Origin: a virus
Lineage: Duplodnaviria; Caudoviricetes
Strand: one strand, 5' to 3'
Length of the DNA stretch: 48,513 nt
IMG/VR virus record: IMGVR_UViG_3300011336_000437
Coordinates: 1 to 48,513 of that record
The first letter of the stretch is position 1; each line of letters begins with the position of its first letter. Below, piece after piece: positions 768 through 46,834 of the stretch. Under the pieces are notes generated by a model. The model worked only from the letters and a program-made list of their open reading frames with translations, was not told the origin of the DNA and did not search any database. Made by a program: the position numbers and the translations under genes.

Positions 768-950
768 ATTGTTTGATTTGGTAACAGGGTAAAAGTACCC
801 CTTTCTGGCGATATTATAAAGCTTTTTTCAAGTATTTTTAGAAGTTTTTAGTTCATCTAATACCAGAGCCCAGGAATAGAAAATGTCTAACCTGGAACTC
901 CAAAATTAGACATTTTTCAGTATTATAACGTATTGGTTTCCAATGGGGAG
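768..950 (-). repeat. Promoter/operator module copy 1
   Basis: Shares TTTGATTTGGTAACAGGGTAAAA.TACCCCTTTCTG.CGA and TATTTTTAGAAGTTTTTAGTT with other copies; -7-like TACTTTTA at 790-797; perfect 11 bp inverted repeat 880-890/906-916. Confidence 0.9.
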
Positions 951-1428: not shown

Positions 1429-1614
1429 TCAAGAACTTTGGTTAGAATTGACTATTTTCTTTTCTTTGATCAACTGCTTACACGTATTTCTTACGTCGTT
1501 CCAGTACTTGATCACGTCGGAATCCTCGATGTCCGATATTACTCCTTGTACAACTTCAATGGATTTCTCTCCGTACTTCTCAACCAAAAAATTAGCTCTT
1601 TCTTTTGTATTCAT
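1429..1614 (-). CDS. Hypothetical protein
   Basis: 61 aa ORF in packed minus-strand run. Confidence 0.65.
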   Translation of the reverse strand: MNTKERANFLVEKYGEKSIEVVQGVISDIEDSDVIKYWNDVRNTCKQLIKEKKIVNSNQSS

Positions 1615-1626
1615 ATAGTATATTAG

Positions 1627-2577
1627 TTATGCTTCTATCGTTTCGTAAGACTCTACCGTTCTGAGTCCTGAATAGTGACACATATTGATCTGCTCCCTGA
1701 TTCTTAGCAGCGCTGCTTCTTTCATTTTCGTTTCCAGCATGATGTCCACATCGATACCGTAAAGGTTTGGCAGAGCGTTAACGTAATCTGAGTGTGCTTG
1801 AGGCTTGATCTTGCTATCGCTCTCGTGCAGTGCTTTAGACTCTGAATAATGTACCACTGGTTTAATACCTTGTGGCCACGTAGATGCGGCAAGCTTAAGT
1901 GCATCCTCTTCTGACATAGCATCCTTCTGACATCTGTGATGGTGATAGTCAAACACAATAGGAATCCTAGCTTTTTCGTACAGATACATCAGATCTTTTA
2001 CAGTATATAATGACTCTTTGTCATCGTTTTCTATGGTAAGCCTAGACTTTACAGCGTCGCTTAGCGATTGAAAGTTATCTGCGAACCTTTGCAAGCATGC
2101 CATTTTGTCACCGTGAGTGCCACCCATGTGTATGTTGATCTTGTTGTACGGAGTCCTTGACAATCTCATAAGATCCATGATTTTACCATGAAGCTCGAGA
2201 TCCTTGATACCGTTTTCTACTACGTTTCTACTTGGACTGCTGAGAGTGGTGAATGGACCAGGATGCATAGTCAGTCGCATGTTATGGAACTTGGCAAAGT
2301 CACCAGCTTTCTTTAAAGCTTCTGCAATCTTCTTGTAGTCAGGTAGATCTGTAAGCTCTATAGTATTGCCCCAAGGAATCATATCGCTGCTCATTCTAAA
2401 AAAGAATATACCATTCCACCTGTTCCACTCTAATATGTGGATGAGATCTGATGCGTTTGCAAGAGAAAGCTTGGACTGATATGCTATACCTTTTTTGTCT
2501 AACGTACTCTTACGCATGGTCCTATTCGTGGTCCTAAATGGCATAGACGTATTGATACAAGCATAACCTAAATTCAT
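1627..2577 (-). CDS. uvsE: UV damage endonuclease UvsE/UVDE
   Basis: LGYACIN, FFRMSSD, LTMHPG, INIHMGG, LTIENDD, VFDYHHH, HYSES, AHSDY, MLETK motifs. Confidence 0.93.
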   Translation of the reverse strand: MNLGYACINTSMPFRTTNRTMRKSTLDKKGIAYQSKLSLANASDLIHILEWNRWNGIFFFRMSSDMIPWGNTIELTDLPDYKKIAEALKKAGDFAKFHNMRLTMHPGPFTTLSSPSRNVVENGIKDLELHGKIMDLMRLSRTPYNKINIHMGGTHGDKMACLQRFADNFQSLSDAVKSRLTIENDDKESLYTVKDLMYLYEKARIPIVFDYHHHRCQKDAMSEEDALKLAASTWPQGIKPVVHYSESKALHESDSKIKPQAHSDYVNALPNLYGIDVDIMLETKMKEAALLRIREQINMCHYSGLRTVESYETIEA

Positions 2578-4625: not shown

Positions 4626-5273
4626 TTATTTAAGTTTGCATGTTCTTACATGACGATCATAATTATTTCCATTTATAGCGATTAGTTTTTTGCAATATTC
4701 GCATTCTACTTTTTTATAAGCTAATCCTTTTTTTCCTGAACTTATCCTATCTCTAATTTCTTGAGATCTTTCTCCCATTTGTTTTCCTTTCCTGGACTTA
4801 GAGATATTATCCTTATGCTCTTGAGTTCTAGTACATTTTTTCTTTCCTTTATTGGAGTTAGATATTTTATTTTTAGTCTCTTCTGAAAGAGATCTTTTTT
4901 CTCTATTAAGTGCTGCAAATTTCATTTTTTCAATGGCTTCTACTGTATGCTTATAACCTCGATGCTTAATTTTCTCTTCCTCCGATCTATTTCCCAGTCT
5001 TCCCTCTCCTCCGTCTGTTTCATTTACTAATGGACCTTTTTTCTTATCTTTTCTACCAATATCAGATATCATTCCAATCTCAATTTTAATAGCTTCTTCC
5101 CAAGATATTCCGTCCAATAAAATATCTGCTTCGAAGCCTAAAGCTTTCTTCACAACACTATGCCAATGTTTATTTCTACGTTGAATAGAGAATGCTCGCT
5201 TTTTTTCTTTTCCTATTCCTATATAAAATATTTCTCCAGTATCTAATCTTCTATGTTGATAGACTATAGCCAT
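4626..5273 (-). CDS. Free-standing GIY-YIG-like homing endonuclease with NUMOD3 repeats
   Basis: VYQH...FYIGIG..KRA, E..MI, LVNETDGGEG, repeated (H/L)SEETKxKIS-type motifs, C-terminal CxxC; start moved to MAIVY behind ATATTTAT motif. Confidence 0.8.
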   Translation of the reverse strand: MAIVYQHRRLDTGEIFYIGIGKEKKRAFSIQRRNKHWHSVVKKALGFEADILLDGISWEEAIKIEIGMISDIGRKDKKKGPLVNETDGGEGRLGNRSEEEKIKHRGYKHTVEAIEKMKFAALNREKRSLSEETKNKISNSNKGKKKCTRTQEHKDNISKSRKGKQMGERSQEIRDRISSGKKGLAYKKVECEYCKKLIAINGNNYDRHVRTCKLK

Positions 5274-5312
5274 AGTTTTTATATAAATATGTCTGACTTG
5301 ATTAAGATTCAA

Positions 5313-8702: not shown

Positions 8703-9443
8703 CTATAGATCTGCTTGCATGGGTTCGTTGCTAGGCGAATATTCTTCGGTACATATAGAAGCATTTACGAACGTAGTACCACGATCGTTAGTGTACTTTC
8801 CATGAGGTGCATGTATGTGTCCAAACACGTGAAGTTTTAAGTTCTCTAATTCGTAGTTGACCGTGTACTCTAACTCTTCGCATCCTACATTGTCTACTCC
8901 GTTTTCTAACAGATCTAATATTCCTTTGGCTGGTCCGTGAGTGATAAGAACATCCACGTTTTTTGGTATCACGCTCCAGTAATTTCTAATCTCGTGTCCT
9001 CTTGCAGCGTTAAATGCCCAGTATTCTTTAAAGAAATCGGGAGTCATAGGAGATCCGTGAAACAGTTTTCCTTGGATTATCTCCGAATTGTTTTCTAGGT
9101 AGTGGATTCTTTTGTCCATTGAACCAAGAAGATCTATCAACCACTCAGGTTTTTTTAGCTCGTAAGTCTCTACGTCTCTGTTGTTTTCGTAGTATCTTAC
9201 GAACCTACCTTTATTAGTTTCTCCAAAAAGTGGATCAAAGGATAGATCATGGTTACCCGCAACAAATACGATATCATCAAAGTTATCCAACTGTCTGTGA
9301 AAGAATGCTATGATCGATTGTACGTCTGCTCTTTTACCTATATTGGTTAAATCTCCAGCGTGCACAAGAATATTACCTGTTCCAACTGAATGCTTCATTT
9401 GATTGTGTAAACCATGCGTATCGCTGATACAAGTAATTTTCAT
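8703..9443 (-). CDS. Calcineurin-like metallophosphoesterase (MPPED/239FB-like)
   Basis: ISDTH, HAGD, AGNHD, LITHGP, VGCEEL, FGHIH, VNAS. Confidence 0.9.
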   Translation of the reverse strand: MKITCISDTHGLHNQMKHSVGTGNILVHAGDLTNIGKRADVQSIIAFFHRQLDNFDDIVFVAGNHDLSFDPLFGETNKGRFVRYYENNRDVETYELKKPEWLIDLLGSMDKRIHYLENNSEIIQGKLFHGSPMTPDFFKEYWAFNAARGHEIRNYWSVIPKNVDVLITHGPAKGILDLLENGVDNVGCEELEYTVNYELENLKLHVFGHIHAPHGKYTNDRGTTFVNASICTEEYSPSNEPMQADL

Positions 9444-11477: not shown

Positions 11478-12215
11478 TTACAAATATTTGTAATCATTAA
11501 ACTTTTTATTTTTAGAGTTGATTCTCCATAAAATTGTAGGTGAAGGAATTCCAGTTTGTCTAGTTGCTTCTGCCAAACTTTCGTATATATTATTATCAAT
11601 CATTACTTGTTTCATGTTTGGTGGTTTTCTGCCTTTATTCTTTTCTGATATCGACTTCTTTACCTTATCGCTGTGGGTTTTGTTATAGAATGCATTTTTT
11701 TCTTTAGCTCTATCATATACAATATGATATTTGCAGTATTCTGCATTTTGAGATACTTTAATTCCACAGGTTTTGCAATAACACATAGATATTCCGCCTT
11801 TCCAGTTAGGATTTTTTTCCATAGGTTTAGATAACTTTTGTTTTCTTTCTTCTATTGACAAACCATCTCTCCATTTTTGACTTCCAATTTTTATATTTTC
11901 TATTATTACATGTCTATTTGGATTTTTTGTTAGGTTATCTCCACCGTTAGCGTGAATTCCTATGTTATATGCAGGATTTTTATTTAAGTATAGTTGTTCA
12001 AGATCGAACAGTTCTTCTTCTTCACATATTTCTACTATTTCAAATGCAAAATTATATGATCTGTATTTATTCCACGCTCTTTGCAAAATAACATTAATAT
12101 GTTTATCATTTATTAAATCGTTCTTATGTCGTTTCCAACGTTTTTCTATTTCTTTAGAAGATCCATAATAACATTTATCGTTCACTAAATTCATTATTCT
12201 ATATATTCCAATCAT
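11478..12215 (-). CDS. Free-standing GIY-YIG homing endonuclease (Seg/I-TevI-like) with NUMOD motifs
   Basis: GIYRI...YYGSS..RW..H, HxNxxLQRAW, E..YL, YN; KTHSDKVK NUMOD3; C-terminal YESLAEATR HTH. Confidence 0.9.
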   Translation of the reverse strand: MIGIYRIMNLVNDKCYYGSSKEIEKRWKRHKNDLINDKHINVILQRAWNKYRSYNFAFEIVEICEEEELFDLEQLYLNKNPAYNIGIHANGGDNLTKNPNRHVIIENIKIGSQKWRDGLSIEERKQKLSKPMEKNPNWKGGISMCYCKTCGIKVSQNAEYCKYHIVYDRAKEKNAFYNKTHSDKVKKSISEKNKGRKPPNMKQVMIDNNIYESLAEATRQTGIPSPTILWRINSKNKKFNDYKYL

Positions 12216-15396: not shown

Positions 15397-15789
15397 TTAT
15401 TTGCTTTCGTAGATGTATAATTTGTAATGACTGTTCTTCGTTGTAAATATAATCAATTCTTCTGAAACAGATTTAATTTCTTTTACGGTTGTGGTCATCC
15501 AAGTGTACGTATATCCTGCGAAGTCTAAGACCAAACTTCTGCCTATTCCTGGTTCTGAGTGCTTTTCTTTGAACGTGCCATTTTCTTTCCACTCTATCCA
15601 AATTATATCGTTTCCTTTTTTTACCAATCCATCAGATCTCTCTAACTTGTACTTATGCGTAGGTTTAAATTCACTATCGCAGTCTTCGCAGTACAAATGA
15701 TCTATCATGCCTTCGCTAATAATCTTGTTACACTTGTTGCAAAGCGTTGCGCCTCGACCCCCGTTAAATTTATGTATTGGCTTTTTCAT
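15397..15789 (-). CDS. Zinc-finger-containing phage protein
   Basis: KFNGGRGATLCNKC...CEDC. Confidence 0.75.
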   Translation of the reverse strand: MKKPIHKFNGGRGATLCNKCNKIISEGMIDHLYCEDCDSEFKPTHKYKLERSDGLVKKGNDIIWIEWKENGTFKEKHSEPGIGRSLVLDFAGYTYTWMTTTVKEIKSVSEELIIFTTKNSHYKLYIYESK

Positions 15790-16907
15790 TAGTGAGAATC
15801 TCCTATATTATTTTTTTCTGAGTAGATAAGATAGTCTGGGTTAATTACTTTTGCGATCTTCCTTCTATCTCCGGATACGTCTTTTATTACTACTCCTTCA
15901 TGAGGTACTTTAGTGCCTTCGATAAAGTTATTGAATACCAACGAGTCCTGTATTTCCTTAGACCACATTCCAGTCCATAAAATAGGCACATAGGGTACTC
16001 TGAAATGCGATATGATCATGTATGCCGCGCTACTTGTATCTACGTACTCACCATTTATGCTTACATCAAATCCCATCAATTTAATCTCGTCTAGTCCATA
16101 GTCATATCCTTTTTGTATGCCGACGCCGTAGATCTCTCCATATAGAGTAATTCCGGTACCAATATCTTTTGCTCCTCTAAACTTGGCAATGTTCCACATC
16201 TTTTCTTTAAGATTGTACTTATCTGCAATCTCGTACCACACATTAGTATCGTAGAATCCTTGAGAGTCTGATCCTTTCTCTACGTTGTGAGATCCTACTA
16301 CGAACTCGTACTCTACCCATTCGTTACCAAAGAACTTTTTTATTTTGTCTAAGAAAGACATTTTATTCTTTTTTACTATTCCATATCTTGCATTAGTTCC
16401 ATGGATCTTCCTAGTGATCTCGACTAAGTCCTTCTCTGTGAACATGTCTGGAACGTTCTTAGCATTCGGGAACTTGTAGTACACTGTAAAGTTAGGATTG
16501 TCTTGGTACCTTACCTTTCTACCTGATGACAGCTGAACCATTTTTATAGGAGGTTCGTACTTAAAGATCTCCATCAATTCCATGCAATCCACTCCTTCCT
16601 TTCTGTATTTTTCTGGAATGAAATTAATGGGAAGAATCAAACACTCGCTATACACTCCACGAAGTTTAACGGTTCTGACCCTTTGACCATTTCTCAAATA
16701 ACTAGTTACTCCCATGGCCACAGATAACTCTAAAGGAATTACTGCGTCTGTAGTGGCTACTACTACCAGATCTCCTACTTTGTATGCATCCTTTTGAATC
16801 ACACAGTTCCATCCGCCTATGGTAGCCAAGACTATTTTGTCGGCTCCTTCTATTGGCTTGATTTCATTTATTTTGGATATGTAACAGACCGAGTTTAAAT
16901 TTTCCAT
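15789..16907 (-). CDS. RNA ligase, DRB0094/Rnl5-type
   Basis: N-terminal OB-like (PIEGADKI, KLRGVYSECL), motif I KIHGTN, YGEIYG, FDV, HEGVVIK, AKVIN. Confidence 0.88.
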   Translation of the reverse strand: MENLNSVCYISKINEIKPIEGADKIVLATIGGWNCVIQKDAYKVGDLVVVATTDAVIPLELSVAMGVTSYLRNGQRVRTVKLRGVYSECLILPINFIPEKYRKEGVDCMELMEIFKYEPPIKMVQLSSGRKVRYQDNPNFTVYYKFPNAKNVPDMFTEKDLVEITRKIHGTNARYGIVKKNKMSFLDKIKKFFGNEWVEYEFVVGSHNVEKGSDSQGFYDTNVWYEIADKYNLKEKMWNIAKFRGAKDIGTGITLYGEIYGVGIQKGYDYGLDEIKLMGFDVSINGEYVDTSSAAYMIISHFRVPYVPILWTGMWSKEIQDSLVFNNFIEGTKVPHEGVVIKDVSGDRRKIAKVINPDYLIYSEKNNIGDSH

Positions 16908-18466: not shown

Positions 18467-18880
18467 TCACAATTTAACGCTAAAACGTGCTTTCATCTGC
18501 TCTAGTTTCTCATCTGGGACACCGTGAACGTTAATCCCGTTGTGTGCATTCTCTACAATAATTCTGAAGACCATGTAGCCGTACTTTTCTGCCAATTTGT
18601 AGTACTCTTCCATTTCCCATTCTTGCGTAAATGTATTGGCTACAGCGATTTCTGGGTAGTATTGGCTATTTTCGTTGTGTGTCTTCATCATCGTTTCTAC
18701 TTTGTCTCTGCACCATTTGTGAGCTTCTTTAAGTTTAGATGCGTCGAATCTGTACACTCCGTCTTCACCTATAAAATACTGATCGGCTTCGCATATAACT
18801 TGTTCGGTCCAAACGAAGTGAGCGAATGTCGATTTTCCCGCTCCCGATACACCCCTTATTAATGTTAGTACTCCGTTCAT
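18467..18880 (-). CDS. P-loop kinase (AAA_33, polynucleotide-kinase/N4BP2-like)
   Basis: LIRGVSGAGKST, EADQYF, AHKWC, VANTF, NVHGVP. Confidence 0.88.
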   Translation of the reverse strand: MNGVLTLIRGVSGAGKSTFAHFVWTEQVICEADQYFIGEDGVYRFDASKLKEAHKWCRDKVETMMKTHNENSQYYPEIAVANTFTQEWEMEEYYKLAEKYGYMVFRIIVENAHNGINVHGVPDEKLEQMKARFSVKL

Positions 18881-18884
18881 AGCT

Positions 18885-19546
18885 TTATTTTTTATAATGT
18901 TCTACTTTTTGGTGATGATCAAACTCTAACATGCTTTTTATTGGTTGTATATTCATTATCCTCATAATCTCTCTCATCTCCATTGGCTTCATATCGTTTC
19001 CGTCCACACCAACATCCATCATTTTACCAGGGCCGATTCTTTTATGCCTAGGCAGGTGCACGTGGCCATGTAGGTGAATAGTTTCTCTTGCTAAGTTGTT
19101 CCAGCTTGCAATAGGAAAGTGCATCAGCACAAAGTCCTGTTGCTCCATCAATGGAGTTCCAACATTCCACTTCACAGTTAACTCAAGATATTTGTTTACG
19201 GAACTAAAAAGATTTTGACAGTCTTCTCTATTGTTTTCTATGTGATGATCGTGGTTACCCGTGATCAAGTGAATGGTCTTACAAAAGATCCCATCTCTAA
19301 ACTGTTTGATGCTTTCGAATCCACCGAAACTCCAATCTCCTAAGTGAATCAGTATATCGTCTTGCTCAACTACAGCATTAATGTTAGCTATAAGATGCGA
19401 GTTCATTTGTTCTAATGATGCGAACTCTCTACACGTTACTGGATCTATCCATTTAGTTGTTGCTGAACAGATGTTTGCGTGATTGTAGTGAGTCAGGTGT
19501 CCGAGGTAAACCACAATCGGGTATCCTCGGACAAATTAATTTTCAT
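18885..19546 (-). CDS. Calcineurin-like metallophosphoesterase interrupted by 5 nt in motif I (recoded gene or pseudogene)
   Basis: Frame A MKINLSEDTRLWFTSDT* (19546-19493); frame B THYNHANI...HLGDW, GNHD, MHFP, HLHGHVH, DVGVD; joining restores FTSDTH. Confidence 0.85.
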
Positions 19547-19871
19547 GTTCATAATCTTCTTTGTTTACATCCCAATCGCTGACTACGAATTTTAATCCTA
19601 CGTAGCCAACTTTGTAGTCTTTTCCTAAAATTGCGGTAGCTTCGAATCCTCCAGTGCCACAGTGGTAAGCCACATCAGGTTGCATTTCTTCTTCTTTCTC
19701 GATTCCACTTACCACGTTTATTAAAAGATCTTCTGCGCATTCTTTAAGTCTTTCTATGGTTGGACACTCTTTAGATCCGTGCCAAGTCCAATCAAGACAC
19801 TCCATAGTTTGCTTGACTTTATCGAAATTGAAATTCTCCAATATTTCTGATATCATTTTTATCTTTGTCAT
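19536..19871 (-). CDS. Conserved hypothetical phage protein (FNFDKV..M..LDWTW...TGGF)
   Basis: 111 aa ORF. Confidence 0.8.
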   Translation of the reverse strand: MTKIKMISEILENFNFDKVKQTMECLDWTWHGSKECPTIERLKECAEDLLINVVSGIEKEEEMQPDVAYHCGTGGFEATAILGKDYKVGYVGLKFVVSDWDVNKEDYEHEN

Positions 19872-24865: not shown

Positions 24866-25612
24866 TTATTTTTTATATATTGATACTTTTCCTTGATAAT
24901 CTATTAATATAGCGCTCATGTTTTCTACCCAATCACCACTATTAAGATATCTCTTACCATTAATAATTCGATCTTCAGGTTGATGTATGTGACCACAAAT
25001 AACTCCATCACATCCTTTCTTCTCTGCCATTTTTAATGCCGTGGTTTCAAAATCATTAACATAGTTAGTTGCTGTTTTAACACTAGATTTTATTTTTTGT
25101 GATATGGATTGATATGGTAGCTTTCTCCACGTTCTGTATTTGTTATATATTCTATTTAACCACAATGCAAAGTCGTATCCTATCGCTCCTAATTTAGCTA
25201 GGTGAGTATATTTTGTTATGAATATATCTATGACATCTCCGTGAAAAACATAATAACATTTTTTTTGCCAATTATCGTATTCTATGTGCTCAGTGTATTC
25301 TATCTTATAGTCTTCTCTAAATTCTATTCCACCAAAATGATTGCCTATAAACTCTTGTAGAAACTCGTCGTGATTACCTCTAATCCAAATAACTTGGATC
25401 TTGTTAGAAAGTTTAAGTATTTTGCTTAAAACTTTTGTGTGTTCTTTTTTCCACTTAGAACCTCTATTTAAAGCCCATCCGTCTACTATGTCTCCATTAA
25501 GGATCAATAAATCTGTTGGATGTTTGTCTATAAATTCTAAGAAATCTTCAGCTTTAGAGTCTTTAGTTCCAAGATGAAGATCTGATACGATGATTGCTTT
25601 ATAGTTTTTCAT
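24866..25612 (-). CDS. LpxH-like UDP-2,3-diacylglucosamine hydrolase family metallophosphoesterase
   Basis: VSDLHLG, LNGDIVDGW, GNHD, HGD, CGHIH, YLNSGDWVE. Confidence 0.88.
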   Translation of the reverse strand: MKNYKAIIVSDLHLGTKDSKAEDFLEFIDKHPTDLLILNGDIVDGWALNRGSKWKKEHTKVLSKILKLSNKIQVIWIRGNHDEFLQEFIGNHFGGIEFREDYKIEYTEHIEYDNWQKKCYYVFHGDVIDIFITKYTHLAKLGAIGYDFALWLNRIYNKYRTWRKLPYQSISQKIKSSVKTATNYVNDFETTALKMAEKKGCDGVICGHIHQPEDRIINGKRYLNSGDWVENMSAILIDYQGKVSIYKK

Positions 25613-29812: not shown

Positions 29813-30181
29813 TTAATTTTCTGTGGTATTTAGCCACGGCGCTTTTTGTATTAATACTGGAGGATTGATTTGATTTTCAATCTGTTGTTCTAACGAAGCA
29901 TACATCGCGTCTACACTACCAGAAGCCATGGATGAGGTCACCCATCCGTATACTATGTCTTTAGTTAATTCACTAAATGGAATAAATGTAGATCCCGATT
30001 CTAAAGCAGCAATAGCTTGAGTACCTATAACAGAGGCATTGTAAGAACCAGTAAATGAACCTGTATAAGGTCCTTTAGTAGCGTATAGCTGCCAATGTAC
30101 TAGGAATACTACGTCTGTTTCTCCGGATGCTGTTGGATAAGATTCTAACGGATTAAAGTTCCAGTTGTAATTAATTTCCAT
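29813..30181 (-). CDS. Tail-fibre-associated small protein
   Basis: VVFLVHW, FIPFSELT..V.GWV, QIENQINPP...PW; overlaps the fibre stop. Confidence 0.7.
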   Translation of the reverse strand: MEINYNWNFNPLESYPTASGETDVVFLVHWQLYATKGPYTGSFTGSYNASVIGTQAIAALESGSTFIPFSELTKDIVYGWVTSSMASGSVDAMYASLEQQIENQINPPVLIQKAPWLNTTEN

Positions 30182-33100
30182 TTGTTAATTTATTTACTTG
30201 TTCTTGTAGATTGTTTATTTGTTGTTGTTGTTCTTTAATGGCTTCTAATAAATACGCTGTTAAATTAGTATATTTTATTCCTTGAGGATCACCTTTTCTA
30301 TCTAAAGATACAAGACTAGGTAATACAGAATACATATCTTCTGCTATAAAGCCTGGTTCATTTATTGCACTGCCGTCTATTTTATCATATGTTACGCCTT
30401 GTATTTGCGTTACTATTGATAATGCATTACTTATAGGCGTAATATTCTCTTTTATATTTCTAGTAGATCCTTGAGTTAAAGCTCCGGCTATGTACATATC
30501 TCCACTACCACTAATATAAGCCGTCATTGTACTACCAGATCCAAAAATTATATAAGCTCCACCACTAGAAGGTCCTCTAGTACTTATACATAAATCTCCA
30601 GGTACTGAGTTTTGAATAAAATTATTTGTATTTGTGGCTAATCCTATTGTTCCTGCTATACTAGCACTAATAGATGCATCTCTTAGATTTAAACTAGGTG
30701 CACTACCAACTGCTGCAATATATAAATCATCACTATTACTAGTTACTTCTAATTGATATATAGGACTTGTACTATTTATACCAACTCTACCCGATTCTAG
30801 TATACTTACAACTTCTGAATTTGCTCCATTATGGAAGGTGTATGTTATAGCATTTCCTGTTGTAATTGTTGTTCTAAATCCATTACTAACACCATCAATA
30901 ATATTCAAATAGTTAGTACCACCAACACCACTACCAAAAGAATTCCTTAACTCACCAACAAGATGCAATTTAGCTAAAGGCGATGTAGTACCTATACCAA
31001 CATTACCCGTATCAGTAATAGCAAAATATCTATCTGACCATAAGGTATACTGAGAAGCGCCCCCACCTCGAGCAATTACAAAACTAGAACTTATCATTCC
31101 TAATTGCCAATCTGCAAATCCACCTCTATGTAAACTATAATAAGCATAGTTATTACCATAAGTTGCATCTGTTCCATCCATATATGCTTCAAATTGACCA
31201 TAAACGGGGGCTGTTCGACCACCGCCGATTTTGGAAGCTATGGCTGTGCCATCTACATCTAATTTTGTTGATGGTGATGTAGTACCTATACCAACATTAC
31301 CCCCAAATGCTTGTATTGCAAGATTTTTCCATGCTGTTGCTCTATGTATGGAATGAATAAAACCATAATCACCTGTATTGTCATATCCAATACCTACAAA
31401 TTTATCAGCATTGGATGGGTTAGCAACTGCTAATCTTGGAGCTACTCCACCATCACCACCATTGTTTGTAGTGCCTATACCAACATTAGTTCCATTATCA
31501 TAAACTGTACTATTGCCTATCACGGTTGAACCAGTGAATTTAGAAAGGAAGTTTGTAGTACCGCTTCCTGCAACACCACCACCGCCTGTAACTTCTATTA
31601 CATTACCACTAGAATCAACAGCTAGATTATACGCTGCCGTACCGGTTACAGATCCTGATCCGTAGTTAGCTAATCTAAGCAGTCCTGTAGAACTAAGTTT
31701 AAACTTTTCTATAGAATCAGGTCTTATCAAAAAGTCAAGTCCAACAGGAATATCTATAGCACCAAAAGTTGAACGTCCTGTAAGAGCCAATTTTATAGCT
31801 GATAGGTATTTTACGTTAAACGCGCCACCTGAAGCCAGTGCTACAGAAGCGCTTGTTCCGTCATCGTCAAGTATACTGTTTCCTATTCCTGTAGTGCTAG
31901 TCCATTTGGGTAAAACGTTAGTAGTTCCTGTTCCTGTAACGGTACCGGTATATTGATCGTTGGACGTGATCGTAAAGTTAGGATATATTCCAGTGATAAC
32001 CGTTGTTCCACCTTGCGTAAGAGACACTGTCTGATTAGGAGCAGTATTAGTTATCGTGAAGTTAGGATATGTTCCAGTAACAGAAATTCCTGTACCGTTA
32101 GTAAATGCTACTGTTCTATCAGGAGCAGTATTTGTTATCGTAAAGTTGGGATAAGTTCCAGTTGCAGAAATCCCCGTGCCATTGGTTAGAGATACAGTCT
32201 GATCTGGAGCTGTGTTTGTTATAACTCCTGTGATATTGCTATAGTTAATTCCTGTTCCTGCGCTTAGTGCTGTCAGCGATATATAAGAATTAGGATTAGT
32301 GGCATTATAAGGAGTAAATCCAAGAGCAGTAGTTACATTTAAACTAGTTAAAGATAAAGTTCCGCCTAAAGTTAGATTTCCTGTAGTTGATACTGTGCCT
32401 GTAAGTGTAAGACCGGATACTGTCCCCGTACCACTTACAGAAGTAACCGTGCCAGTATTTGTAGTATATCCGTTAGGATTTGATGCTAAGTAATAAGTTG
32501 AGTTATCGTAACTTATCGTTGTACCAGAAATCTTAACAAAGCCTGTTCCGCTCAATGGAGCTTGATAGCTTAATGAAGGAATATCTGCGGCTACAAGAGA
32601 TCTAAATGTTGGCGTCGCTGCAACACCTGTAGTTGGTCCAGCTAATACTGTGTTAGCAGTTTGAGTAGCAAAATTTGAAGGAAGTACAGATAGAGTTCCT
32701 CCTAAAGTTAGATTTCCTGTAGTTGATACTGTTCCAGATAGAGAAATACCGGATACTGTTCCTGTTCCGCTTACTGATGTGACTGTTCCAGTATTTGTAG
32801 TATACCCCGATGGATTAGAAGCTAAGTAGTAGGTTGAGTTATCGTAAGTTATGCTCGTTCCAGAAGCTTTTACGAATCCTGTTCCGTTGATTACGTTTAC
32901 ACTACCGCCTAGTGAGGTAACTGATCCTTGAATAGTTATTGAACTGTTTGTCAATCCTGAATTTGGAATAGTAGAAACGTAATTGACATTGGTTCCTGAC
33001 ATGCTTACGTATCCTGATCCATTCAACAATGGTTGATAGGTCGTCGTATCTACTGCTAGAGTTCCATCGCTGCTACTAAACTTAACAAAACCATTTGTTG

Positions 33101-34712
33101 TGTATGAGTTTAGTTTAATAGTTCCAGTTCCATTTATACTTAATCGATCTGTATTATTAGTTCCTATTGCAATTGGAAATGCTCCATTTGTATATATTGC
33201 TGCGACTCCTAAACTTCTTTGAGGATCTATAGTTAATGATGCACCTCCAACTTGAGTGTCAACGATTTCTATTCTTCCAGAATTACCTGCGCCTTGAGTT
33301 CTAATCATACCGCCTGCAAGTATTCTGTAAGGGGCTTGAGCGGTAGCATTTATTCCTATATATCCATCAACCGTTAAATTGCTTGAATATCGACCTGTTC
33401 CTTGCACGTCAAGTCTATATCCGGGTGAAGCAGTATTTATACCAACATTAGTACCGTCATCGTAAACTAAACTGTTTCCTAAAGAATTTATACCAGTAAG
33501 TTTCGATACGTAATTCGTAGTTCCAGATATATTAGTTGAGTAAGAAGACGTTAGCGCGTAAGAAGAAGAAATCGCTCTACTTGCTGTTCCAAACAAAGAT
33601 CCTGTGAATCCAGTTGTAGCTGTTACTGATCCTGTTACATTTACTGGAATAGATACTGAAACCTTTGAGTTATCGTCAGTGATATTAGAGTCATAAATGT
33701 GATCATCTCCTTGTCCCCTAAGTACTCTATTTAAAGTTGGATAAGTTGCGTCTGCTAAAGATCCAGAGTTTTTTGGACCAGCTATGAATCCTCCACCACT
33801 ATAAGAAGATCCACTACCGTTTGAGTAAACAAAATGATTTGTTTGAGAATCCCACACTAAAGAAGCCGTAGTAGTAGATGATCCTGAATCGTAAATAATT
33901 AATCCAGCATATCTTGAAGAAGGAGTTTGCGTGTTTAATACTATATATTCTTGTCCTATTATGACAGCAGAACCAGTAATAGTTTGAACATATCCAAAAG
34001 AAGCAGATTGAGCTGTTATAGAATTTGCGACTATGTTATTTGTAATATTAATGCTTGACGCACTTAAGTTTAATCCTATTTTTAAGGATTCAGCGTGAGA
34101 AGCGGTAATCGCATAAGAAGAACTTACTGAAGAACTAGCTGTATAGGCTGATATAGCTGATGAGGCTGTGTAGGCGTAAGAAGAACTTACTGAAGAACTA
34201 GCTGTATAGGCTGATATAGCTGAACTAGCAGTATAAGCATAAGAAGAACTTACTGAAGAACTAGCTGTATAGGCTGATATAGCTGAACTAGCAGTATAAG
34301 CATAAGAAGAACTTACCACATAAGATGCTGATAGCGCGTAAGATGAAGAAACCGCATTTGATGCTGTACCGAATAAAGAACCAGTAAGATTATTAATAAC
34401 TGTTGATCCACTAACTCTCATACTTCCAGAAACACTTACAGTTCCAATTAAGGTTTGCCTATCTGATGTATCATCACCTAATTGATTTGATCCTGTGGAA
34501 TAACCTTCTGATTTTATGAATCCAATTGATGCTGTTCCTGCAATTTGAACATCTCCAATAATGCTAACTGATCCGCTCATATTGATTGCAGATCCAGTGA
34601 TAGTTACTGTAGAACCGGACATATTTGTAGATAACCATCTAAGGTTATCATCCATCTCCGTAAAGGTTAACGTATTACCTTTGACTAGTCTGTAAATAGG
34701 AAAATCTGCCAT
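30171..34712 (-). CDS. Tail fibre/virion adhesin with C-terminal intramolecular chaperone (Peptidase_S74)
   Basis: G/S/T-rich, GNVGIGTTSP repeats, STRNIKENI...GFIAED...IKY..L...LLEAIKE coiled coil. Confidence 0.88.
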   Translation of the reverse strand: MADFPIYRLVKGNTLTFTEMDDNLRWLSTNMSGSTVTITGSAINMSGSVSIIGDVQIAGTASIGFIKSEGYSTGSNQLGDDTSDRQTLIGTVSVSGSMRVSGSTVINNLTGSLFGTASNAVSSSYALSASYVVSSSYAYTASSAISAYTASSSVSSSYAYTASSAISAYTASSSVSSSYAYTASSAISAYTASSSVSSSYAITASHAESLKIGLNLSASSINITNNIVANSITAQSASFGYVQTITGSAVIIGQEYIVLNTQTPSSRYAGLIIYDSGSSTTTASLVWDSQTNHFVYSNGSGSSYSGGGFIAGPKNSGSLADATYPTLNRVLRGQGDDHIYDSNITDDNSKVSVSIPVNVTGSVTATTGFTGSLFGTASRAISSSYALTSSYSTNISGTTNYVSKLTGINSLGNSLVYDDGTNVGINTASPGYRLDVQGTGRYSSNLTVDGYIGINATAQAPYRILAGGMIRTQGAGNSGRIEIVDTQVGGASLTIDPQRSLGVAAIYTNGAFPIAIGTNNTDRLSINGTGTIKLNSYTTNGFVKFSSSDGTLAVDTTTYQPLLNGSGYVSMSGTNVNYVSTIPNSGLTNSSITIQGSVTSLGGSVNVINGTGFVKASGTSITYDNSTYYLASNPSGYTTNTGTVTSVSGTGTVSGISLSGTVSTTGNLTLGGTLSVLPSNFATQTANTVLAGPTTGVAATPTFRSLVAADIPSLSYQAPLSGTGFVKISGTTISYDNSTYYLASNPNGYTTNTGTVTSVSGTGTVSGLTLTGTVSTTGNLTLGGTLSLTSLNVTTALGFTPYNATNPNSYISLTALSAGTGINYSNITGVITNTAPDQTVSLTNGTGISATGTYPNFTITNTAPDRTVAFTNGTGISVTGTYPNFTITNTAPNQTVSLTQGGTTVITGIYPNFTITSNDQYTGTVTGTGTTNVLPKWTSTTGIGNSILDDDGTSASVALASGGAFNVKYLSAIKLALTGRSTFGAIDIPVGLDFLIRPDSIEKFKLSSTGLLRLANYGSGSVTGTAAYNLAVDSSGNVIEVTGGGGVAGSGTTNFLSKFTGSTVIGNSTVYDNGTNVGIGTTNNGGDGGVAPRLAVANPSNADKFVGIGYDNTGDYGFIHSIHRATAWKNLAIQAFGGNVGIGTTSPSTKLDVDGTAIASKIGGGRTAPVYGQFEAYMDGTDATYGNNYAYYSLHRGGFADWQLGMISSSFVIARGGGASQYTLWSDRYFAITDTGNVGIGTTSPLAKLHLVGELRNSFGSGVGGTNYLNIIDGVSNGFRTTITTGNAITYTFHNGANSEVVSILESGRVGINSTSPIYQLEVTSNSDDLYIAAVGSAPSLNLRDASISASIAGTIGLATNTNNFIQNSVPGDLCISTRGPSSGGAYIIFGSGSTMTAYISGSGDMYIAGALTQGSTRNIKENITPISNALSIVTQIQGVTYDKIDGSAINEPGFIAEDMYSVLPSLVSLDRKGDPQGIKYTNLTAYLLEAIKEQQQQINNLQEQVNKLTNGN
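31968..32225. repeat. About 81 bp (27 aa) tandem repeat x3 in tail fibre
   Basis: TVxxTNGTGISxTGTYPNFTITNTAP(D/N). Confidence 0.85.
32353..32886. repeat. Internal duplication of about 65 aa, offset 336 bp
   Basis: GTGFVK.SGT.I.YDNSTYYLASNP.GYTTNTGTVTSVSGTGTVSG...GNLTLGGTLS twice. Confidence 0.85.
34111..34316. repeat. 63 bp (21 aa) tandem repeat x3.3 in tail fibre
   Basis: SSSYAYTASSAISAYTASSSV; units start 34111, 34174, 34237, 34300. Confidence 0.92.
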
Positions 34713-35029: not shown

Positions 35030-36199
35030 CTAGATATACTTCTTCATTGGTTGAATCATATCGCTCTCGTATGTTTTCATAGACGTGATAGTTAATTTAA
35101 ACTCATCAAGTTCAAGATGTCCTATTCTTCCAGAATCTTTTATTATCTCTGGAAATTGTTGAACTATAGAAGTATGATCTTGCGTTAATTTTTTAAAGTC
35201 AAATTCTATTAGTATGTCGTTATTCTTTTCTGCTGATGTGAGAGCGATTCTTTCGTGTAGATTAAAATTAGTATTGGGTTGTTCGTACTTAAAATAATCA
35301 TCGATGATACTTTGATCTTCTACGTAGATATTTGTACACATAGGTTCCAAAAAAGCCATAGCTTGTAGTGTACAATTTTTTACCACGAATCCTATGTTGT
35401 ACTTTGGTTTTATTATAGGATGTTGAAACTCATCGTTTTTAATCCAAGATCCCCACTTACGTAGATACTCTCTAGCCGCGCGTTGAGAAGCATTCTTAAA
35501 GTAATCATCGTCTTTACCTACTTGATCTGTCCAGCGATGCCCTCTGCATGTTAAGTGATATACAAAAGCATCTCTTGACTGGATTAATTTGTATCCGCTT
35601 AAGATCCATCTTTCAAATATGTCAGAGTCTTCATAAGGAAATGGAGCAAATATATGATCATGTCCTCCCATTGCCAAAAAGTCATCTTTATAAATGATCC
35701 AAGGCGCAAACATACCTTTAGAAGTTTCGTCTTTATTTATCTCTTGCTGTTTTAAGCAAAACTCTTCGAACGCTGGAATATTTAGATCATCAAAATCTAG
35801 ACCAAAGTTTTGTATGATCTTCTCGTTTCCTGGTGGGTGCAGAGGCGGTTCTATTCTAGTTCCTGCTACTACTGTCCCCTTTTTAAGGTGCTTTAGCATA
35901 TTTTCAACATAGTTAGGTCCCATGATCATGTCTGCATGCATTATACCAACTATATCATTTGTTGCATGATTTATTCCAACATCATATAAAATTGTGTGAC
36001 CAAGTCTTTCATTTGAGATTTTAAGAACAACTAGATTATCATCGTTAGGTCTAAGACCTTGCATCCAGTCCCAAGATTTATCAGTAGAAGCATCATCTAT
36101 TAAGATGATCTCTACTTCAGGAGCATGCTTACGGATGCTAGCGTATGCATTCTTTAAATGCTTAAGATTGTTATGACTGGGAATAATTAGACTAATCAT
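35030..36199 (-). CDS. Glycosyltransferase family 2
   Basis: LIIPSHN, IDDASTD, HADM, EDSD. Confidence 0.88.
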   Translation of the reverse strand: MISLIIPSHNNLKHLKNAYASIRKHAPEVEIILIDDASTDKSWDWMQGLRPNDDNLVVLKISNERLGHTILYDVGINHATNDIVGIMHADMIMGPNYVENMLKHLKKGTVVAGTRIEPPLHPPGNEKIIQNFGLDFDDLNIPAFEEFCLKQQEINKDETSKGMFAPWIIYKDDFLAMGGHDHIFAPFPYEDSDIFERWILSGYKLIQSRDAFVYHLTCRGHRWTDQVGKDDDYFKNASQRAAREYLRKWGSWIKNDEFQHPIIKPKYNIGFVVKNCTLQAMAFLEPMCTNIYVEDQSIIDDYFKYEQPNTNFNLHERIALTSAEKNNDILIEFDFKKLTQDHTSIVQQFPEIIKDSGRIGHLELDEFKLTITSMKTYESDMIQPMKKYI

Positions 36200-37331
36200 A
36201 TTTTAGCTTTATTTTTTCTGGTTTTTTGTCTTTTGTTGTAAGTATCATTCCATTAACTTCGTAAGTTTGATTTGGCTCTGCTCCTTCTAATACTTCCTCT
36301 ATGTTAGAAATAAGTTGTTGAAAACTTTCAACTTCTGATCTATTGGAAAAATTAACTTCTAATATAATATCGTTACTTAGTTCTTTAACGAATTTACTAG
36401 CAATATCAAACTTAGAATTTGGTTGTACTTGATTTATGTAATCTAAGAAATCAATATCTACTTGTAAAGAATTAAAATATGGTTCAAATCCTAAAATTCC
36501 TTGAGGACAATTCTTAGCTTTTAGTCCTATATCGTATTTTACATTAGGTCTTGGTTCACATGGTCCGTACTCTTTAAAAAATCCTCCCCACTTTCTAATG
36601 TATTCTACCATAGAGATTTCATTATTCTTTAGCCAGAGATCATCTTTCTTTTGAAAGTCTTCCATTTTTTCTGCTCCTAAAAACTGTCCACCTCTACAGG
36701 TTAAGTGATACACTAAACTGTCCCAAGACTGCACCATCTGATATCCTGCAAGCACAAACCTTCTAAACAGATCAGCATCTTCAAACACTGAAAGGAATAT
36801 AGGATCGTGTCCTAAATGATCCCTACGATCTATTAGCCAAGGAGCAAAAGAAGATCCTGTAGTTTTTCCTTTGTTATCTGTACTAAATTTATTAACGAAC
36901 TCATCGAACTCTTTCCATTTAAAATCTTCAGGCCACATACCAAAGTCCTTGACTATTTTCTCTGGACCTGGCGGATGTAATGGCGGTTCTATTCTTGTAG
37001 AGCACACAACTGATCCTCTCTTGTGATGCTTGACTAAGTTTTTGTCTGCATCTATACCTAATACCATGTCTGCATGAAAAGCTACCACTAAATCGTGTTT
37101 AGCTTTTTTGAATAAAGTATCGTAAGCGTATCCTATTCCTTTACATGCTCCGCTATCGTTAAGTATGTATTTTATTCTATTCTCTTTTAGCCACTCGCTT
37201 GTTCTATCGTCATCTTGATCTACGTACACAAGTATTTCGTTGTCTTTGTAGTGACTATTCTTCTTTATTGATTCTATTGCTAGCTTTACGTATCGAAGGT
37301 TATTTTTTGATGGGACGCAGTATGTAATCAT
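36192..37331 (-). CDS. Glycosyltransferase family 2, paralog of 35030..36199
   Basis: Shared HADM, TRIEPPLHPPG.EKI, YHLTCRG. Confidence 0.85.
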   Translation of the reverse strand: MITYCVPSKNNLRYVKLAIESIKKNSHYKDNEILVYVDQDDDRTSEWLKENRIKYILNDSGACKGIGYAYDTLFKKAKHDLVVAFHADMVLGIDADKNLVKHHKRGSVVCSTRIEPPLHPPGPEKIVKDFGMWPEDFKWKEFDEFVNKFSTDNKGKTTGSSFAPWLIDRRDHLGHDPIFLSVFEDADLFRRFVLAGYQMVQSWDSLVYHLTCRGGQFLGAEKMEDFQKKDDLWLKNNEISMVEYIRKWGGFFKEYGPCEPRPNVKYDIGLKAKNCPQGILGFEPYFNSLQVDIDFLDYINQVQPNSKFDIASKFVKELSNDIILEVNFSNRSEVESFQQLISNIEEVLEGAEPNQTYEVNGMILTTKDKKPEKIKLKYD

Positions 37332-38179
37332 TTGAAAAGATGATTGTATTTTTGTCTATTATTTTTTATGTAATCGGGTAAATTTATGTCTTCTATTACG
37401 CAAGAAAATGGACGACCTAAAACATCTTCTCCTCTCTCTAGTCTTTTAGACACTAAATCTTTAACTTGATCGTTGTTATACTCTTGGTGACCAAAGTTTT
37501 CTAATTTAGTTTTTATCCTCTCTAATCCTCCTTGATAAGTAAAGTGCCAACCACCGTTTTCTACGATTACATGTTTTGTTTTTGCTACTGTATCAAAGTG
37601 ATTAGCACTAGCGTTTTTAATATTTCTATACTTTGTGTAATAAGTGCCTATCCATTCTTCGCTGCTTCTTAAATTTAAAAAAGCCATGTGAACGTTTTGT
37701 CTTAATTTACGTACGCTAAAATCGTCTATTTCGTAATTAACTTCAGGATTCCATATCTCATCTACATCTGATACGAAACATACGTCATCGTCTTGCAAGT
37801 TTGCCATCAGCATTCCTCGTCTTACACTTTCATGCTGATAGAATTCTCTTAGCCACTGAGTCTCTCCTGGAGGAACGTTAGACGTAGTAAGACAGTACAT
37901 AAGTATATTTTTTTCTAACTCATCTTTTGGCGATAAAAATCTTTGTTGAGCTTCTTCAAAAGAATTTGGAGTATCTTCGACTACGCAATGAACTATCTTA
38001 TGATTAAACTTTTCAAATCTTTTTTTGTTTTCTTCGTAAAACAGTGGCTTTTCTTTTCCAGAGTGACTTACCGTAGACTCAACTAAAATAAAAGTATCTA
38101 CTTTATCGTTTAGAGTATTTAACCTAATTTCTAGTATGTCTAGTTCATTAAAAAATATAAAAGAATCTGTAACTTTCAT
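37328..38179 (-). CDS. GT17-like beta-1,4-N-acetylglucosaminyltransferase
   Basis: FFNELDILEIR, VES..SHSG..KPL, SDVDEI, GGWHF. Confidence 0.85.
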   Translation of the reverse strand: MKVTDSFIFFNELDILEIRLNTLNDKVDTFILVESTVSHSGKEKPLFYEENKKRFEKFNHKIVHCVVEDTPNSFEEAQQRFLSPKDELEKNILMYCLTTSNVPPGETQWLREFYQHESVRRGMLMANLQDDDVCFVSDVDEIWNPEVNYEIDDFSVRKLRQNVHMAFLNLRSSEEWIGTYYTKYRNIKNASANHFDTVAKTKHVIVENGGWHFTYQGGLERIKTKLENFGHQEYNNDQVKDLVSKRLERGEDVLGRPFSCVIEDINLPDYIKNNRQKYNHLFK

Positions 38180-38182
38180 TAA

Positions 38183-39097
38183 TTATTGTTTGTATGATTG
38201 ATAGTATTCTGGATGATCTAACTTGTATAATTCAAACTCTCTTTTACACTCGTCGTAACTTTGTAGATTTCCTTCTCTATCCATGTATATAAAATCTCTA
38301 CACAAATTTGCTCCTGTAGCCCAATATCCATCAGATACATTATGTCGAGCCCAATACTTTGGAGCTATTATTAACTTAGCTTCTTCGTTAGTCAAAGCTG
38401 GGAAGTACGCAAAACTTGAGTTTGATAGAATTAACCATCTTGCGTTTTTAACGATAGCATAATCTTTACCAACATCAAAATGATACACGTTATCTGCCAA
38501 TTCTGGAAGCAATCTTTTTGCCATATCAGGATTTTCTGTTATGATCAAAAACTGCATGTTTGGATTTATTTTTAGCATCTGATATATGCATCTAACCCAG
38601 TAGTTTCTAGGCAAAAACAAAGTTTCGTCTCCTTCATAATCTCTGATATTTAGAACGCAAATGTTGTCGTCTGTAAAGTCTTTACAGTCATGCTCGGGTT
38701 TTAGTTTTAACCACTTCTTTATATCTTCTTTCCTATGGTATATGTAATCTTCTGATTGCATCGTGCCATACAATTCGCTATTATCTGGAACATTTGGTAA
38801 ATTAAGATCTGCTAATCTTATGTCGCAACCTAAAGTAGAATCATGATGACTATGATCTAATTTGATTCTTACTTCTTTCTCTTTGTACAGATTGGTTATT
38901 TTAGATTCATCTACTGGCTCTCCTAAATAAAGATCCATAAAATATAATCCTTGATCGTTGTATCGTCGATCTCCTAAATTTTCTATTCCTAACAATCCAA
39001 AATCTACTCCTCGATCTGCTGCTATAACTCGCGTAGTAACATATACGTGCAACTGATTGCCTAATCCTTGTCCATGCAATAATTTTGTCAATATCAT
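38183..39097 (-). CDS. GT11-like (alpha-1,2-fucosyltransferase-like) glycosyltransferase
   Basis: GQGLGNQL, QSEDY, ILSNSSF, IIAPKYW. Confidence 0.8.
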   Translation of the reverse strand: MILTKLLHGQGLGNQLHVYVTTRVIAADRGVDFGLLGIENLGDRRYNDQGLYFMDLYLGEPVDESKITNLYKEKEVRIKLDHSHHDSTLGCDIRLADLNLPNVPDNSELYGTMQSEDYIYHRKEDIKKWLKLKPEHDCKDFTDDNICVLNIRDYEGDETLFLPRNYWVRCIYQMLKINPNMQFLIITENPDMAKRLLPELADNVYHFDVGKDYAIVKNARWLILSNSSFAYFPALTNEEAKLIIAPKYWARHNVSDGYWATGANLCRDFIYMDREGNLQSYDECKREFELYKLDHPEYYQSYKQ

Positions 39098-39098
39098 T

Positions 39099-40439
39099 TT
39101 ATAAGATGTATTTATTTTTTCCGTGAAAGAGAAACGGTGCTATGCCTTTAGTTTCTGGTAGATCTGTTTCATGAGAAAAATATCTAGCTACGTCTATATC
39201 TGCGAACTTACATCCATGTTCTTTGTATATGTGTCTGTTGTTTACGCATATGAATCCGTCTTCACTATAATATCCATGAAACGCTTTCCATTCCAAATTT
39301 AACTCTTTTGCTAGATCTATTAGCTTTTTACTTCTTAGTGATACGCTATTTCCTACTCTTATTAATTCTCCATTAATATCTCTATAAGAAAAATTATCTT
39401 TAGGAATTGGCCACGGAGCGCCTATGTAATCGTAGTTAAAAAATTCTTCTCTCCATGAATTAGGATTTATTACAAATCCATCGCTGTGAATAAGTAACGC
39501 GAACTCTGTGTCTACGTAGTCTCCTAATTTGTAGATTATCGAATGATTCCAATCGTCTATGTTATTCATTCTTTCTATAGAGTGATACGATATTCCTTCT
39601 GGAAGATTCTCTGGCTTTTCATGACAAACTAATTTTACTGCTCCGTACTTTACATTTTTACAACTGTATTGCAATGCTTTGACATGACTCTCTATATCCA
39701 CAGAAGTAACCGCTATTAGTGTGACTCTGCTCAGATCTACTTGTCTTTCAAAAAATTCAATTGATCTTTCTACCTCTTTTTGCTTTCTTTGTTCTGATAG
39801 AGTATTGGTAGTTCGACCTTCGCCATTTCTGTTTATTACGCAGAGATCGTTTACTACGTGAGGAAGACCAAACTTATCATATAGAGTTTTATAGTATACA
39901 CAATCCACTAACCAATTATAGCTTTCGTCTACTAATATTGGATTTTCATTCTTTATAGTTAGTACAGTTGGACAGCTTATAGTGTTATATCCTGAATAGA
40001 TCTTATCGTTATATACAGGATACATTTGATCGTACAAAGTTTCTCCATCGTCTGTGTGAGCGCAACTCGTAACCAACCAATTTACGTCTTCTCTATCTTT
40101 TAAATATTCGTACAGTTTCATCATAGACTCTGTTCCAAATAAGAAATCGTCTTGAAACAAAATCTTTATGTATTTTCCTGTACTCTTGAGAATTGCGTTA
40201 TTTAAGTTGGGTCCTATGACTCCTCTTCCTATGTCGTTCTTGTAATATTTTACGTCTATGACTTGCCTCCACTGTTCGCACAGATTTTTAATGTCATCAT
40301 TCTGACTGTGATCAGATACGACTACTTCGAAGTCTGTAAAACTCTGTTGAGCAATTATGTTTAAAGAATAATCTAAGTACTCTACACCCTTTCCATTTAT
40401 CTCCCAAGTTGGAATCGCTATGCTAAAAAATTTACTCAT
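39099..40439 (-). CDS. GT2 domain fused to DUF5672-like domain
   Basis: VVSDHS, FQDDF; C-half IHSDGF, YDYIGAPW, VGN..SLRSK, EDGF, FHG. Confidence 0.8.
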   Translation of the reverse strand: MSKFFSIAIPTWEINGKGVEYLDYSLNIIAQQSFTDFEVVVSDHSQNDDIKNLCEQWRQVIDVKYYKNDIGRGVIGPNLNNAILKSTGKYIKILFQDDFLFGTESMMKLYEYLKDREDVNWLVTSCAHTDDGETLYDQMYPVYNDKIYSGYNTISCPTVLTIKNENPILVDESYNWLVDCVYYKTLYDKFGLPHVVNDLCVINRNGEGRTTNTLSEQRKQKEVERSIEFFERQVDLSRVTLIAVTSVDIESHVKALQYSCKNVKYGAVKLVCHEKPENLPEGISYHSIERMNNIDDWNHSIIYKLGDYVDTEFALLIHSDGFVINPNSWREEFFNYDYIGAPWPIPKDNFSYRDINGELIRVGNSVSLRSKKLIDLAKELNLEWKAFHGYYSEDGFICVNNRHIYKEHGCKFADIDVARYFSHETDLPETKGIAPFLFHGKNKYIL

Positions 40440-43364: not shown

Positions 43365-43376
43365 ATATCTATTTTA

Positions 43377-44689: not shown

Positions 44690-44699
44690 TGTTTATTTT

Positions 44700-45519: not shown

Positions 45520-45525
45520 AATAAT

Positions 45526-46833: not shown

Positions 46834-46834
46834 A

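Follow-up and report, generated by a model that had tools for sequence, protein, structure and literature searches.

How can a gene that carries a stop codon inside its first catalytic motif still yield a whole enzyme? This question is raised by a phosphoesterase gene in a 48,513-nucleotide (nt) stretch of viral DNA (Duplodnaviria; Caudoviricetes; IMG/VR record IMGVR_UViG_3300011336_000437, positions 1 to 48,513), referred to here as the window. The gene lies on the minus strand and is split. An ATG at 19546 opens a short open reading frame (ORF) that runs through TTT ACC TCG GAC to ACC (19498-19496) and ends at TGA (19495-19493), and an ACT (19493-19491) overlapping that stop leads into CAC TAC AAT CAC in the frame of the remaining enzyme. 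Skipping the gap joins 17 codons to 201 and gives a protein of 218 amino acids (aa). An original prediction, made from the letters alone, read this as a programmed hop over the stop, and the codons, the TGA and the overlapping ACT are all where it placed them. Comparison with related genes leads us to propose that the locus probably carries a hairpin-assisted stop-hop by peptidyl-tRNA-Thr, which rescues a gene with a broken nuclease target and was left by a homing-endonuclease cassette. The elements of the break are as follows.

19496..19546, minus strand: ORF1 of the phosphoesterase, 17 codons, MKINLSEDTRLWFTSDT, bearing the first metal-motif Asp (from the sequence and alignment to relatives)
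19525..19533, minus strand: 5' arm of the hairpin, TGTCCGAGG, whose TCCG core occurs in 55/55 broken genes (see below) and in three reading frames
19498..19506, minus strand: 3' arm of the hairpin, CCTCGGACA, spanning the Thr-Ser-Asp codons, its last base being base 1 of the take-off codon
19500..19502, minus strand: GGA triplet within the stem, 6 nt 5' of the landing codon (from the sequence)
19496..19498, minus strand: predicted take-off codon ACC (Thr)
19493..19495, minus strand: TGA stop, next to the take-off codon on its 3' side
19491..19495, minus strand: 5-nt coding gap, missing from intact relatives
19491..19493, minus strand: predicted landing codon ACT (Thr), sharing the last base of the stop
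18885..19490, minus strand: ORF2, 201 codons from the motif His, with GD, GNHD, and GHVH motifs intact

The downstream frame matches calcineurin-like phosphoesterases in both Pfam (PF00149) and PHROG (phrog_547). Its DxH motif, the Asp of which is presumably a metal ligand, is whole only when the gene is read across the gap. In a 30-row alignment, H18, G68, D69, G95-D98, and G159-H162 are invariant and D16 is conserved in at least 90% of rows, and an enzyme of about 218 aa with intact downstream motifs is what had been foreseen. A second in-frame ATG lies upstream of the ORF1 start, at 19552. The arms TGTCCGAGG and CCTCGGACA pair perfectly over 9 bp, 6 of them G-C, and the last pair reaches the first base of the take-off codon, as predicted. 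The fold alone is weak evidence, since the 111-nt region taken whole stands out only slightly (z, -1.47; 16 of 200 shuffles equal or better), but a stem at the right distance is rare: no stem ended at the same distance at 3000 random window positions, and 1 of the window's 94 matched-codon/stop candidates has such a stem. No further hop was found elsewhere in the window among these 94 candidates.

One possibility is that the 5 extra nucleotides arose in assembly. Contigs of runs X13, X14, and X16, each from a different study, cross the junction with no gap in the alignment and contain the 5 nt; this check rests on contigs rather than raw reads and leaves out runs X20-X22, which held too little content. 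The main contig of RNA run X19, at depth 18, likewise retains the 5 nt. The break is not an assembly error. A minor contig of the same run (record 5; depth 3.9) has flanks almost identical to those of the window, with dense differences between 19491 and 19554, no gap, and no stem. This single low-depth contig appears to be the native allele of a near-identical strain, and comparison with it sets the limits of the replaced segment.

19491..19554, minus strand: extent of the replaced 5' cassette, relative to one X19 contig (depth 3.9) with a native 5' end

The same break recurs in other phosphoesterase genes. Pattern scans returned phosphoesterases at 4/11, 4/6, 16/28, 21/77, 39/63, 9/11, and 3/5 loci. 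Altogether, 98 locus hits collapse to 55 distinct broken genes, all interrupted at the same D-T-H codons, and the 52 proteins long enough for a tree have a median pairwise identity of 33%. The 55 genes share one layout, a Thr codon followed by a stop and then, at a distance of 5, 6, or 9 nt (49, 4, and 2 genes, respectively), by a landing codon. The stop is TAA in 30, TGA in 20, and TAG in 5, and no gene has a sense codon in its place. Reading TAG as Gln was rejected for L092, which has no TAG inside its long ORFs and whose neighboring gene terminates at TAG.

All 55 genes have a hairpin, with a stem of 7 to 14 bp and a loop of 5 to 64 nt, and the mean folding energy is -22.3 kcal/mol, compared with -5.7 kcal/mol in 111 intact genes. 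The 5' arm falls in reading frame 0 in 40 genes, frame 1 in 11, and frame 2 in 4; because it occurs in all three frames, we take the hairpin to be kept as RNA rather than as protein. The core sequence of the stem is invariant. One stem pair is A-U in 30 genes, G-U in 23, and C-G in 2, the C-G form turning Ser into Ala and occurring in two distant lineages, and the adjacent pair is G-C in 53, C-G in 1, and U-G in 1. These counts come from an anchored script without a shuffle control, as MAFFT split the 5' arm in short-loop members. The homologue alignment suggested with the original prediction thus contains both the gap and compensatory changes in a hairpin present in 55/55 genes. The sequence TCG or GCG followed by GAC is found in 55/55 broken genes and 1/111 intact genes, a difference to be read in light of the many scans that selected for it.

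A scan by hairpin only, with no requirement after GACAC, was taken as a fair sample for hop length and stop. Among its 77 loci, a stop follows ACN in all 21 phosphoesterases and in 1 of the 56 others, and hop lengths at the phosphoesterase loci are +5 in 13, +6 in 5, and +9 in 3. Codon-neutral scans found the stop, TCG GAC, and the arm together in 9/9 (+5) and 3/3 (+6) phosphoesterase loci. The same hairpin in other genes was considered and set aside: the look-alikes L147, L155, L171, L177, and L200 are chance matches, three of them clearly antisense to other genes, and the remaining 51 nonphosphoesterase loci of the hairpin-only scan were judged from the stop table alone. A search of GTDB for bacterial or prophage copies gave 8 matches to the +5 pattern, none of them a phosphoesterase. 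Genes are intact in two Bacteroidota phages (Flavobacterium immuto and Cellulophaga phi4:1) and in a faecal record, the only records inspected among 920 and 1456 protein hits; these provided no cultured carrier, and junction searches did not find the cassette.

At the junction itself, the stem ends between -2 and +3 relative to the first base of the take-off codon. Take-off and landing codons are both ACN in 53 of the 55 genes (ACC/ACT in the window), and in 16 of the 18 distinct genes from the unconstrained, hairpin-only scan. The landing codon is the same as that used for take-off in 21 genes, matched in wobble class in 19, a Thr codon of the other class in 13, and GCT or ATT in 2; these last two would differ from the Thr anticodon by G-U pairs only. 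GGA is invariant, lying 6 nt before the landing codon in +5 forms and 10 nt before it in +9 forms, and it doubles as a stem arm. Both +9 members, L146 and L158, have double stops and stems that reach +3 and +1 into the take-off codon, which hints, weakly, that hop length depends on how far the stem extends; yet the +5 members L219 and L263 reach as far. The shortest form is that of L282 (positions 884-926, plus strand), in which ORF1 has 10 codons, the stem lies over the start codon, and a strong Shine-Dalgarno-like sequence stands upstream; this form suggests a different host group.

The nearest relatives of these genes are mostly intact. Among the 80 viral loci closest to the window, 1 matches it across the junction, 1 (L015) is broken in a version of its own, and the other 78 lack both break and stem. 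For L116, a gut member, all 80 of the nearest relatives are intact, some at 98% identity. Uninterrupted relatives lacking the hairpin, named beforehand as evidence against a programmed signal, are the rule close by. We read the intact neighborhoods as the mark of a mobile cassette rather than as a refutation. In a quick tree (3 short broken proteins omitted, intact genes thinned from 113 to 64, intact sampling uneven), at least 5 gains or losses are needed, and the window is sister to the intact L002.

Where would such a cassette come from? The 48-nt 5' end of the window gene matches other cassettes at 40, 39, and 39 of 48 positions, compared with 30 at most for 64 intact near relatives, and the matching cassettes include genes just 49% identical to it downstream. 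Nuclease profiles place a nuclease gene or remnant within 700 nt upstream of 29/52 broken genes and 0/110 intact genes; with the 18 training loci removed, the association is 11/34. These 29 calls comprise 18 LAGLIDADG (two of them remnants), 7 NUMOD3/phrog_23051, 3 HNH, and 1 phrog_559. One pair of loci captures the boundary of a cassette. L116 and L292 have flanks 96 to 98% identical, and in L116 a 1,003-bp insert, made up of a LAGLIDADG ORF and a new hairpin-bearing 5' end, replaces the native 46-bp 5' end with its boundary exactly at the landing codon. Our search found no close match to the L116 nuclease. The nuclease in L234 carries an internal deletion, and apart from this L234 and L259 are nearly identical. 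Upstream of the window phosphoesterase we found no nuclease match, and only the replaced 5' end remains; the gene that overlaps its start is the following.

19536..19871, minus strand: gene of 111 aa that belongs to no known family and overlaps the ORF1 start, with no endonuclease match in profile searches

The original prediction of a programmed signal is supported, and it missed this link to homing endonucleases.

Several loci have features of their own. In L198, L219, L242, L245, and L248, an unnamed family of 310 to 340 aa (phrog_23051; NUMOD3 in two; conserved RDH...RHPxNCQI) stands at the nuclease's expected place and is a candidate new HNH-like homing endonuclease. An NCBIfam search gave no match. 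The LAGLIDADG gene of L266 (278-1099, minus strand) is antisense to the phosphoesterase, and the hairpin loop there is 64 nt. In L101, from a 321-kb phage, an SmpB gene (1610-2047, minus strand) lies directly upstream of the stop-hop phosphoesterase. Inteins are also reported to invade phage phosphoesterases (10.1101/2025.01.02.630785).

The downstream frame is under purifying selection. Ratios of nonsynonymous to synonymous substitution rates (dN/dS) between broken genes range from 0 to 0.32, most of them from 0.04 to 0.19 (13 of 15 pairs computable), at near-saturated synonymous distance; those between intact genes range from 0.05 to 0.12 (6 of 7 pairs computable). Relaxed selection, which would have spoken for decay, is not what these values indicate. 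Broken genes keep the GD motif in 52/52 cases, GHxH in 52/52, and GNH[DE] in 50/52, and ahead of the break the zero-frame residues F/I/V-T-S/A-D-T are retained with synonymous variation. Taken together, the conservation of the signal, the stem covariation, the strict stops, the occurrence of +6 and +9 forms, and the purifying selection argue for a programmed short bypass over decay, as had been claimed; the hop itself we infer.

How might the hop work? While ACC occupies the P site, the 3' arm would lie over the E-site codon and the bases behind it, and the stem could not close until the ribosome advanced. With UGA in the A site, peptidyl-tRNA-Thr would leave ACC, slide 5 nt, and re-pair on ACU, and decoding would restart at His. 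Zipping of the stem in the mRNA exit channel would draw the mRNA 5', driving the slide to the next ACN; all three lengths would be accounted for if the hop runs from ACN to the codon that precedes His. The invariant GGA 6 nt before landing is a lead for an alternative driver, as it may act as a mini-Shine-Dalgarno sequence. A comparable 5' stem-loop "motor" model has been proposed for phage T4 gene 60 (PMC5009743; 10.1101/2024.12.09.627546), and refolding of an upstream hairpin is reported to stimulate +1 movement on 70S ribosomes (PMC6321510). The gap lies in the gene's most conserved codons, which are the expected nuclease target. By interrupting the D-T-H codons, it would ruin that target and let the element home without killing the gene, much as the T4 bypass insert is reported to block nicking by MobA. 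The nuclease could subsequently be lost or swapped with the hop persisting, as may have happened in the window genome, from which it is absent.

To our knowledge, natural bypassing has been documented in very few systems. In phage T4, a 50-nt bypass in gene 60 lies within a MobA homing-endonuclease element that has homologues (10.1101/2022.08.31.505936), and the T4 cassette has been called unique. The element described here would act in the manner of MobA/gene 60 but is not a member of that group, as it lacks the features that define it: the target, the gap length, the take-off stem-loop, and the nascent peptide. Gene 60 encodes a topoisomerase large subunit with CTE and NTE tails, whereas the target here is PF00149/phrog_547, interrupted near the N terminus. 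Gaps in the gene 60 family are 20 to 50 nt, compared with 5, 6, or 9 nt, and take-off codons are Gly or Asp rather than Thr. The gene 60 take-off codon and stop are held in a take-off stem-loop, whereas our hairpin is confined to the region 5' of the stop, and a take-off/A-site stem-loop or tetraloop is absent. A nascent-peptide signal acts about 30 residues before take-off in gene 60, and ORF1 here has 10 to 45 codons (17 in the window, 10 in L282). Finally, MobA is an HNH enzyme and the commonest nuclease here is LAGLIDADG. The likeness is one of arrangement rather than demonstrated sequence kinship. Gene 60 cassettes are described as having a mini-Shine-Dalgarno sequence 5 to 7 nt before the landing codon (10.1101/2022.08.31.505936).

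Other hops resemble this one in part. Synthetic stop-hops in Escherichia coli likewise use matched codons flanking or overlapping a stop, with +5 and +6 hops (PMC10732093; PMC5009743; 10.1101/2024.12.09.627546), but they are reported as low level and without stimulators, whereas the arrangement found here occurs in nature, is conserved, and goes together with a covarying hairpin. A 2016 review describes natural in-frame stop hopping as not known (PMC5009743). The 10-nt bypass in the terminase of Streptomyces phage Hau3 is also short, natural, and phage borne, with a proposed 5' stem-loop stimulator; its trigger is the rare codon UUA rather than a stop, its proposed role is regulatory, and the accessible text of that report mentions no nuclease link (PMC10732093). 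In Magnusiomyces mitochondria, short inserts are likewise skipped between matched, sometimes loosely matched, codons, but there the codon is unassigned and bypassing is described as independent of mRNA context (PMC5009743). In collaborative homing, a free-standing nuclease similarly travels with a neutral interruption of its target and nuclease classes are interchangeable, the interruption being an intron that is spliced out rather than a gap skipped in translation (PMC10448857). A literature search, which left most subscription journals uncovered, found neither a report of bypassing in phage phosphoesterases nor one of nuclease-linked gaps of 5 to 9 nt.

Could the enzyme be made without a hop? 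Re-initiation, -1 frameshifting, or readthrough, giving a split or slightly altered product, seems to us very unlikely. A GTG at 19514 does open the downstream frame in the window, and in 28 of the 49 +5 members an ATG, GTG, or TTG precedes the junction in that frame; 27 of the 55 genes, however, lack such a start codon. The same frame reads LGHLTH, in which the motif Asp is lost; -1 frameshifting leaves the +6 and +9 forms unexplained, and readthrough fails for the +5 forms and for double stops. The conserved zero frame, with its synonymous variation, also stands against a product made without a hop. Also very unlikely, in our estimate, is excision of the 5 to 9 nt from the mRNA by a nuclease and a ligase, in effect a micro-intron with the hairpin as recognition element. 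The short AC repeat that flanks the gap, the invariant stem core, and the kinase-like and RNA ligase genes downstream in the window would all suit it. Against it, the first triplet of the gap is in every case an in-frame stop, with all three kinds represented and TGG never seen, third codon positions are free to vary, and 5, 6, and 9 nt are too short for ribozymes, Rfam having yielded 0 matches for the window. In RNA run X19 the 5 nt are retained by the main contig and no joint was seen, a weak point given that contigs drop rare forms and may derive from DNA. Least likely of all, and already largely refuted, is that the cassette merely inactivates a dispensable gene or that the break reflects decay or error. 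The gene is accessory, the window holds two other phosphoesterases, and the GNH motif is altered in two members (L254 and L264), but the gap is present in independent contigs, dN/dS stays low between broken sisters at near-saturated synonymous distance, and stems change in compensation in distant lineages.

A hairpin-assisted stop-hop left by a homing-endonuclease cassette thus remains our preferred explanation, and several points weigh against it. Of 52 broken genes with enough flank, 23, the window included, have no nearby nuclease, and 7 of the 29 nuclease calls rest on NUMOD3/phrog_23051, a family whose HNH look-alikes are all sub-0.9 and whose nuclease status is only a lead. Codon matching is looser than the strict gene 60 rules: in 13 of the 55 pairs the third base changes between purine and pyrimidine, and in 2 the landing codon does not encode Thr (GCT and ATT), whereas take-off/landing pairs in the gene 60 family are said to be read by one tRNA (10.1101/2022.08.31.505936). 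Unstimulated stop-hops are low level, which bears on how efficient the predicted hop may be. Most scans required +5 and an ACN landing, which biases the tallies, and the intact controls were drawn from two neighborhoods of the tree only.

On balance, we lean slightly toward a broader proposal, that efficient, minimal stop-hop cassettes form a widespread family in nature, in which the refolding of one exit-channel hairpin pushes peptidyl-tRNA-Thr 5 to 9 nt past any stop. The +6 and +9 forms would then be the first natural in-frame stop-hops, and the 50- to 60-nt module would be a portable anti-homing patch, serving up to four unrelated nuclease classes and retained after nuclease loss. The module, about 55 nt in size, exists in 55 natural variants that offer hops of 5, 6, or 9 nt, all three stops, loops of 5 to 64 nt, and compensatory stems. 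These variants make the model in which pairing of the exiting mRNA drives forward sliding directly testable, without the nascent peptide and long gap of gene 60. They also suggest a third route, beside introns and inteins, by which selfish nucleases can break their target without gene death. A further consequence is that gene-calling programs shorten enzymes of this kind, leaving out the first catalytic motif.

The window, part of a large phage, has its closest cultured protein match in Flavobacterium phages (57%), and the host was presumably a member of the Bacteroidota. Two genes downstream of the phosphoesterase were assigned by profile match.

18467..18880, minus strand: AAA_33 kinase-like gene, directly downstream of the phosphoesterase
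15789..16907, minus strand: RNA ligase

These neighbors suggest a role in nucleic-acid end processing; one mycobacteriophage phosphoesterase has been reported as a counter-defence factor (PMC12287305). Two further metallophosphoesterases, at 8703-9443 and 24866-25612 on the minus strand, have an intact DxH motif. Three other free-standing endonuclease genes lie on the minus strand at 11478-12215, 4626-5312, and 1627-2577; two are phrog_314 homing endonucleases, one after a thymidylate synthase and one after a helicase-like gene, and one is phrog_8420. No stop-hop signature was found downstream of these three genes. An intergenic stretch whose translation starts SPERG(N/T)FTLLPNQ is repeated near 18290, 6350, and 750 on the minus strand and is possibly a phage promoter or a recombination repeat. 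A long cluster of glycosyltransferase, epimerase, and aminotransferase genes (35030-48277, minus strand) adjoins a 1513-aa tail-fibre gene at 30171-34712 on the same strand.
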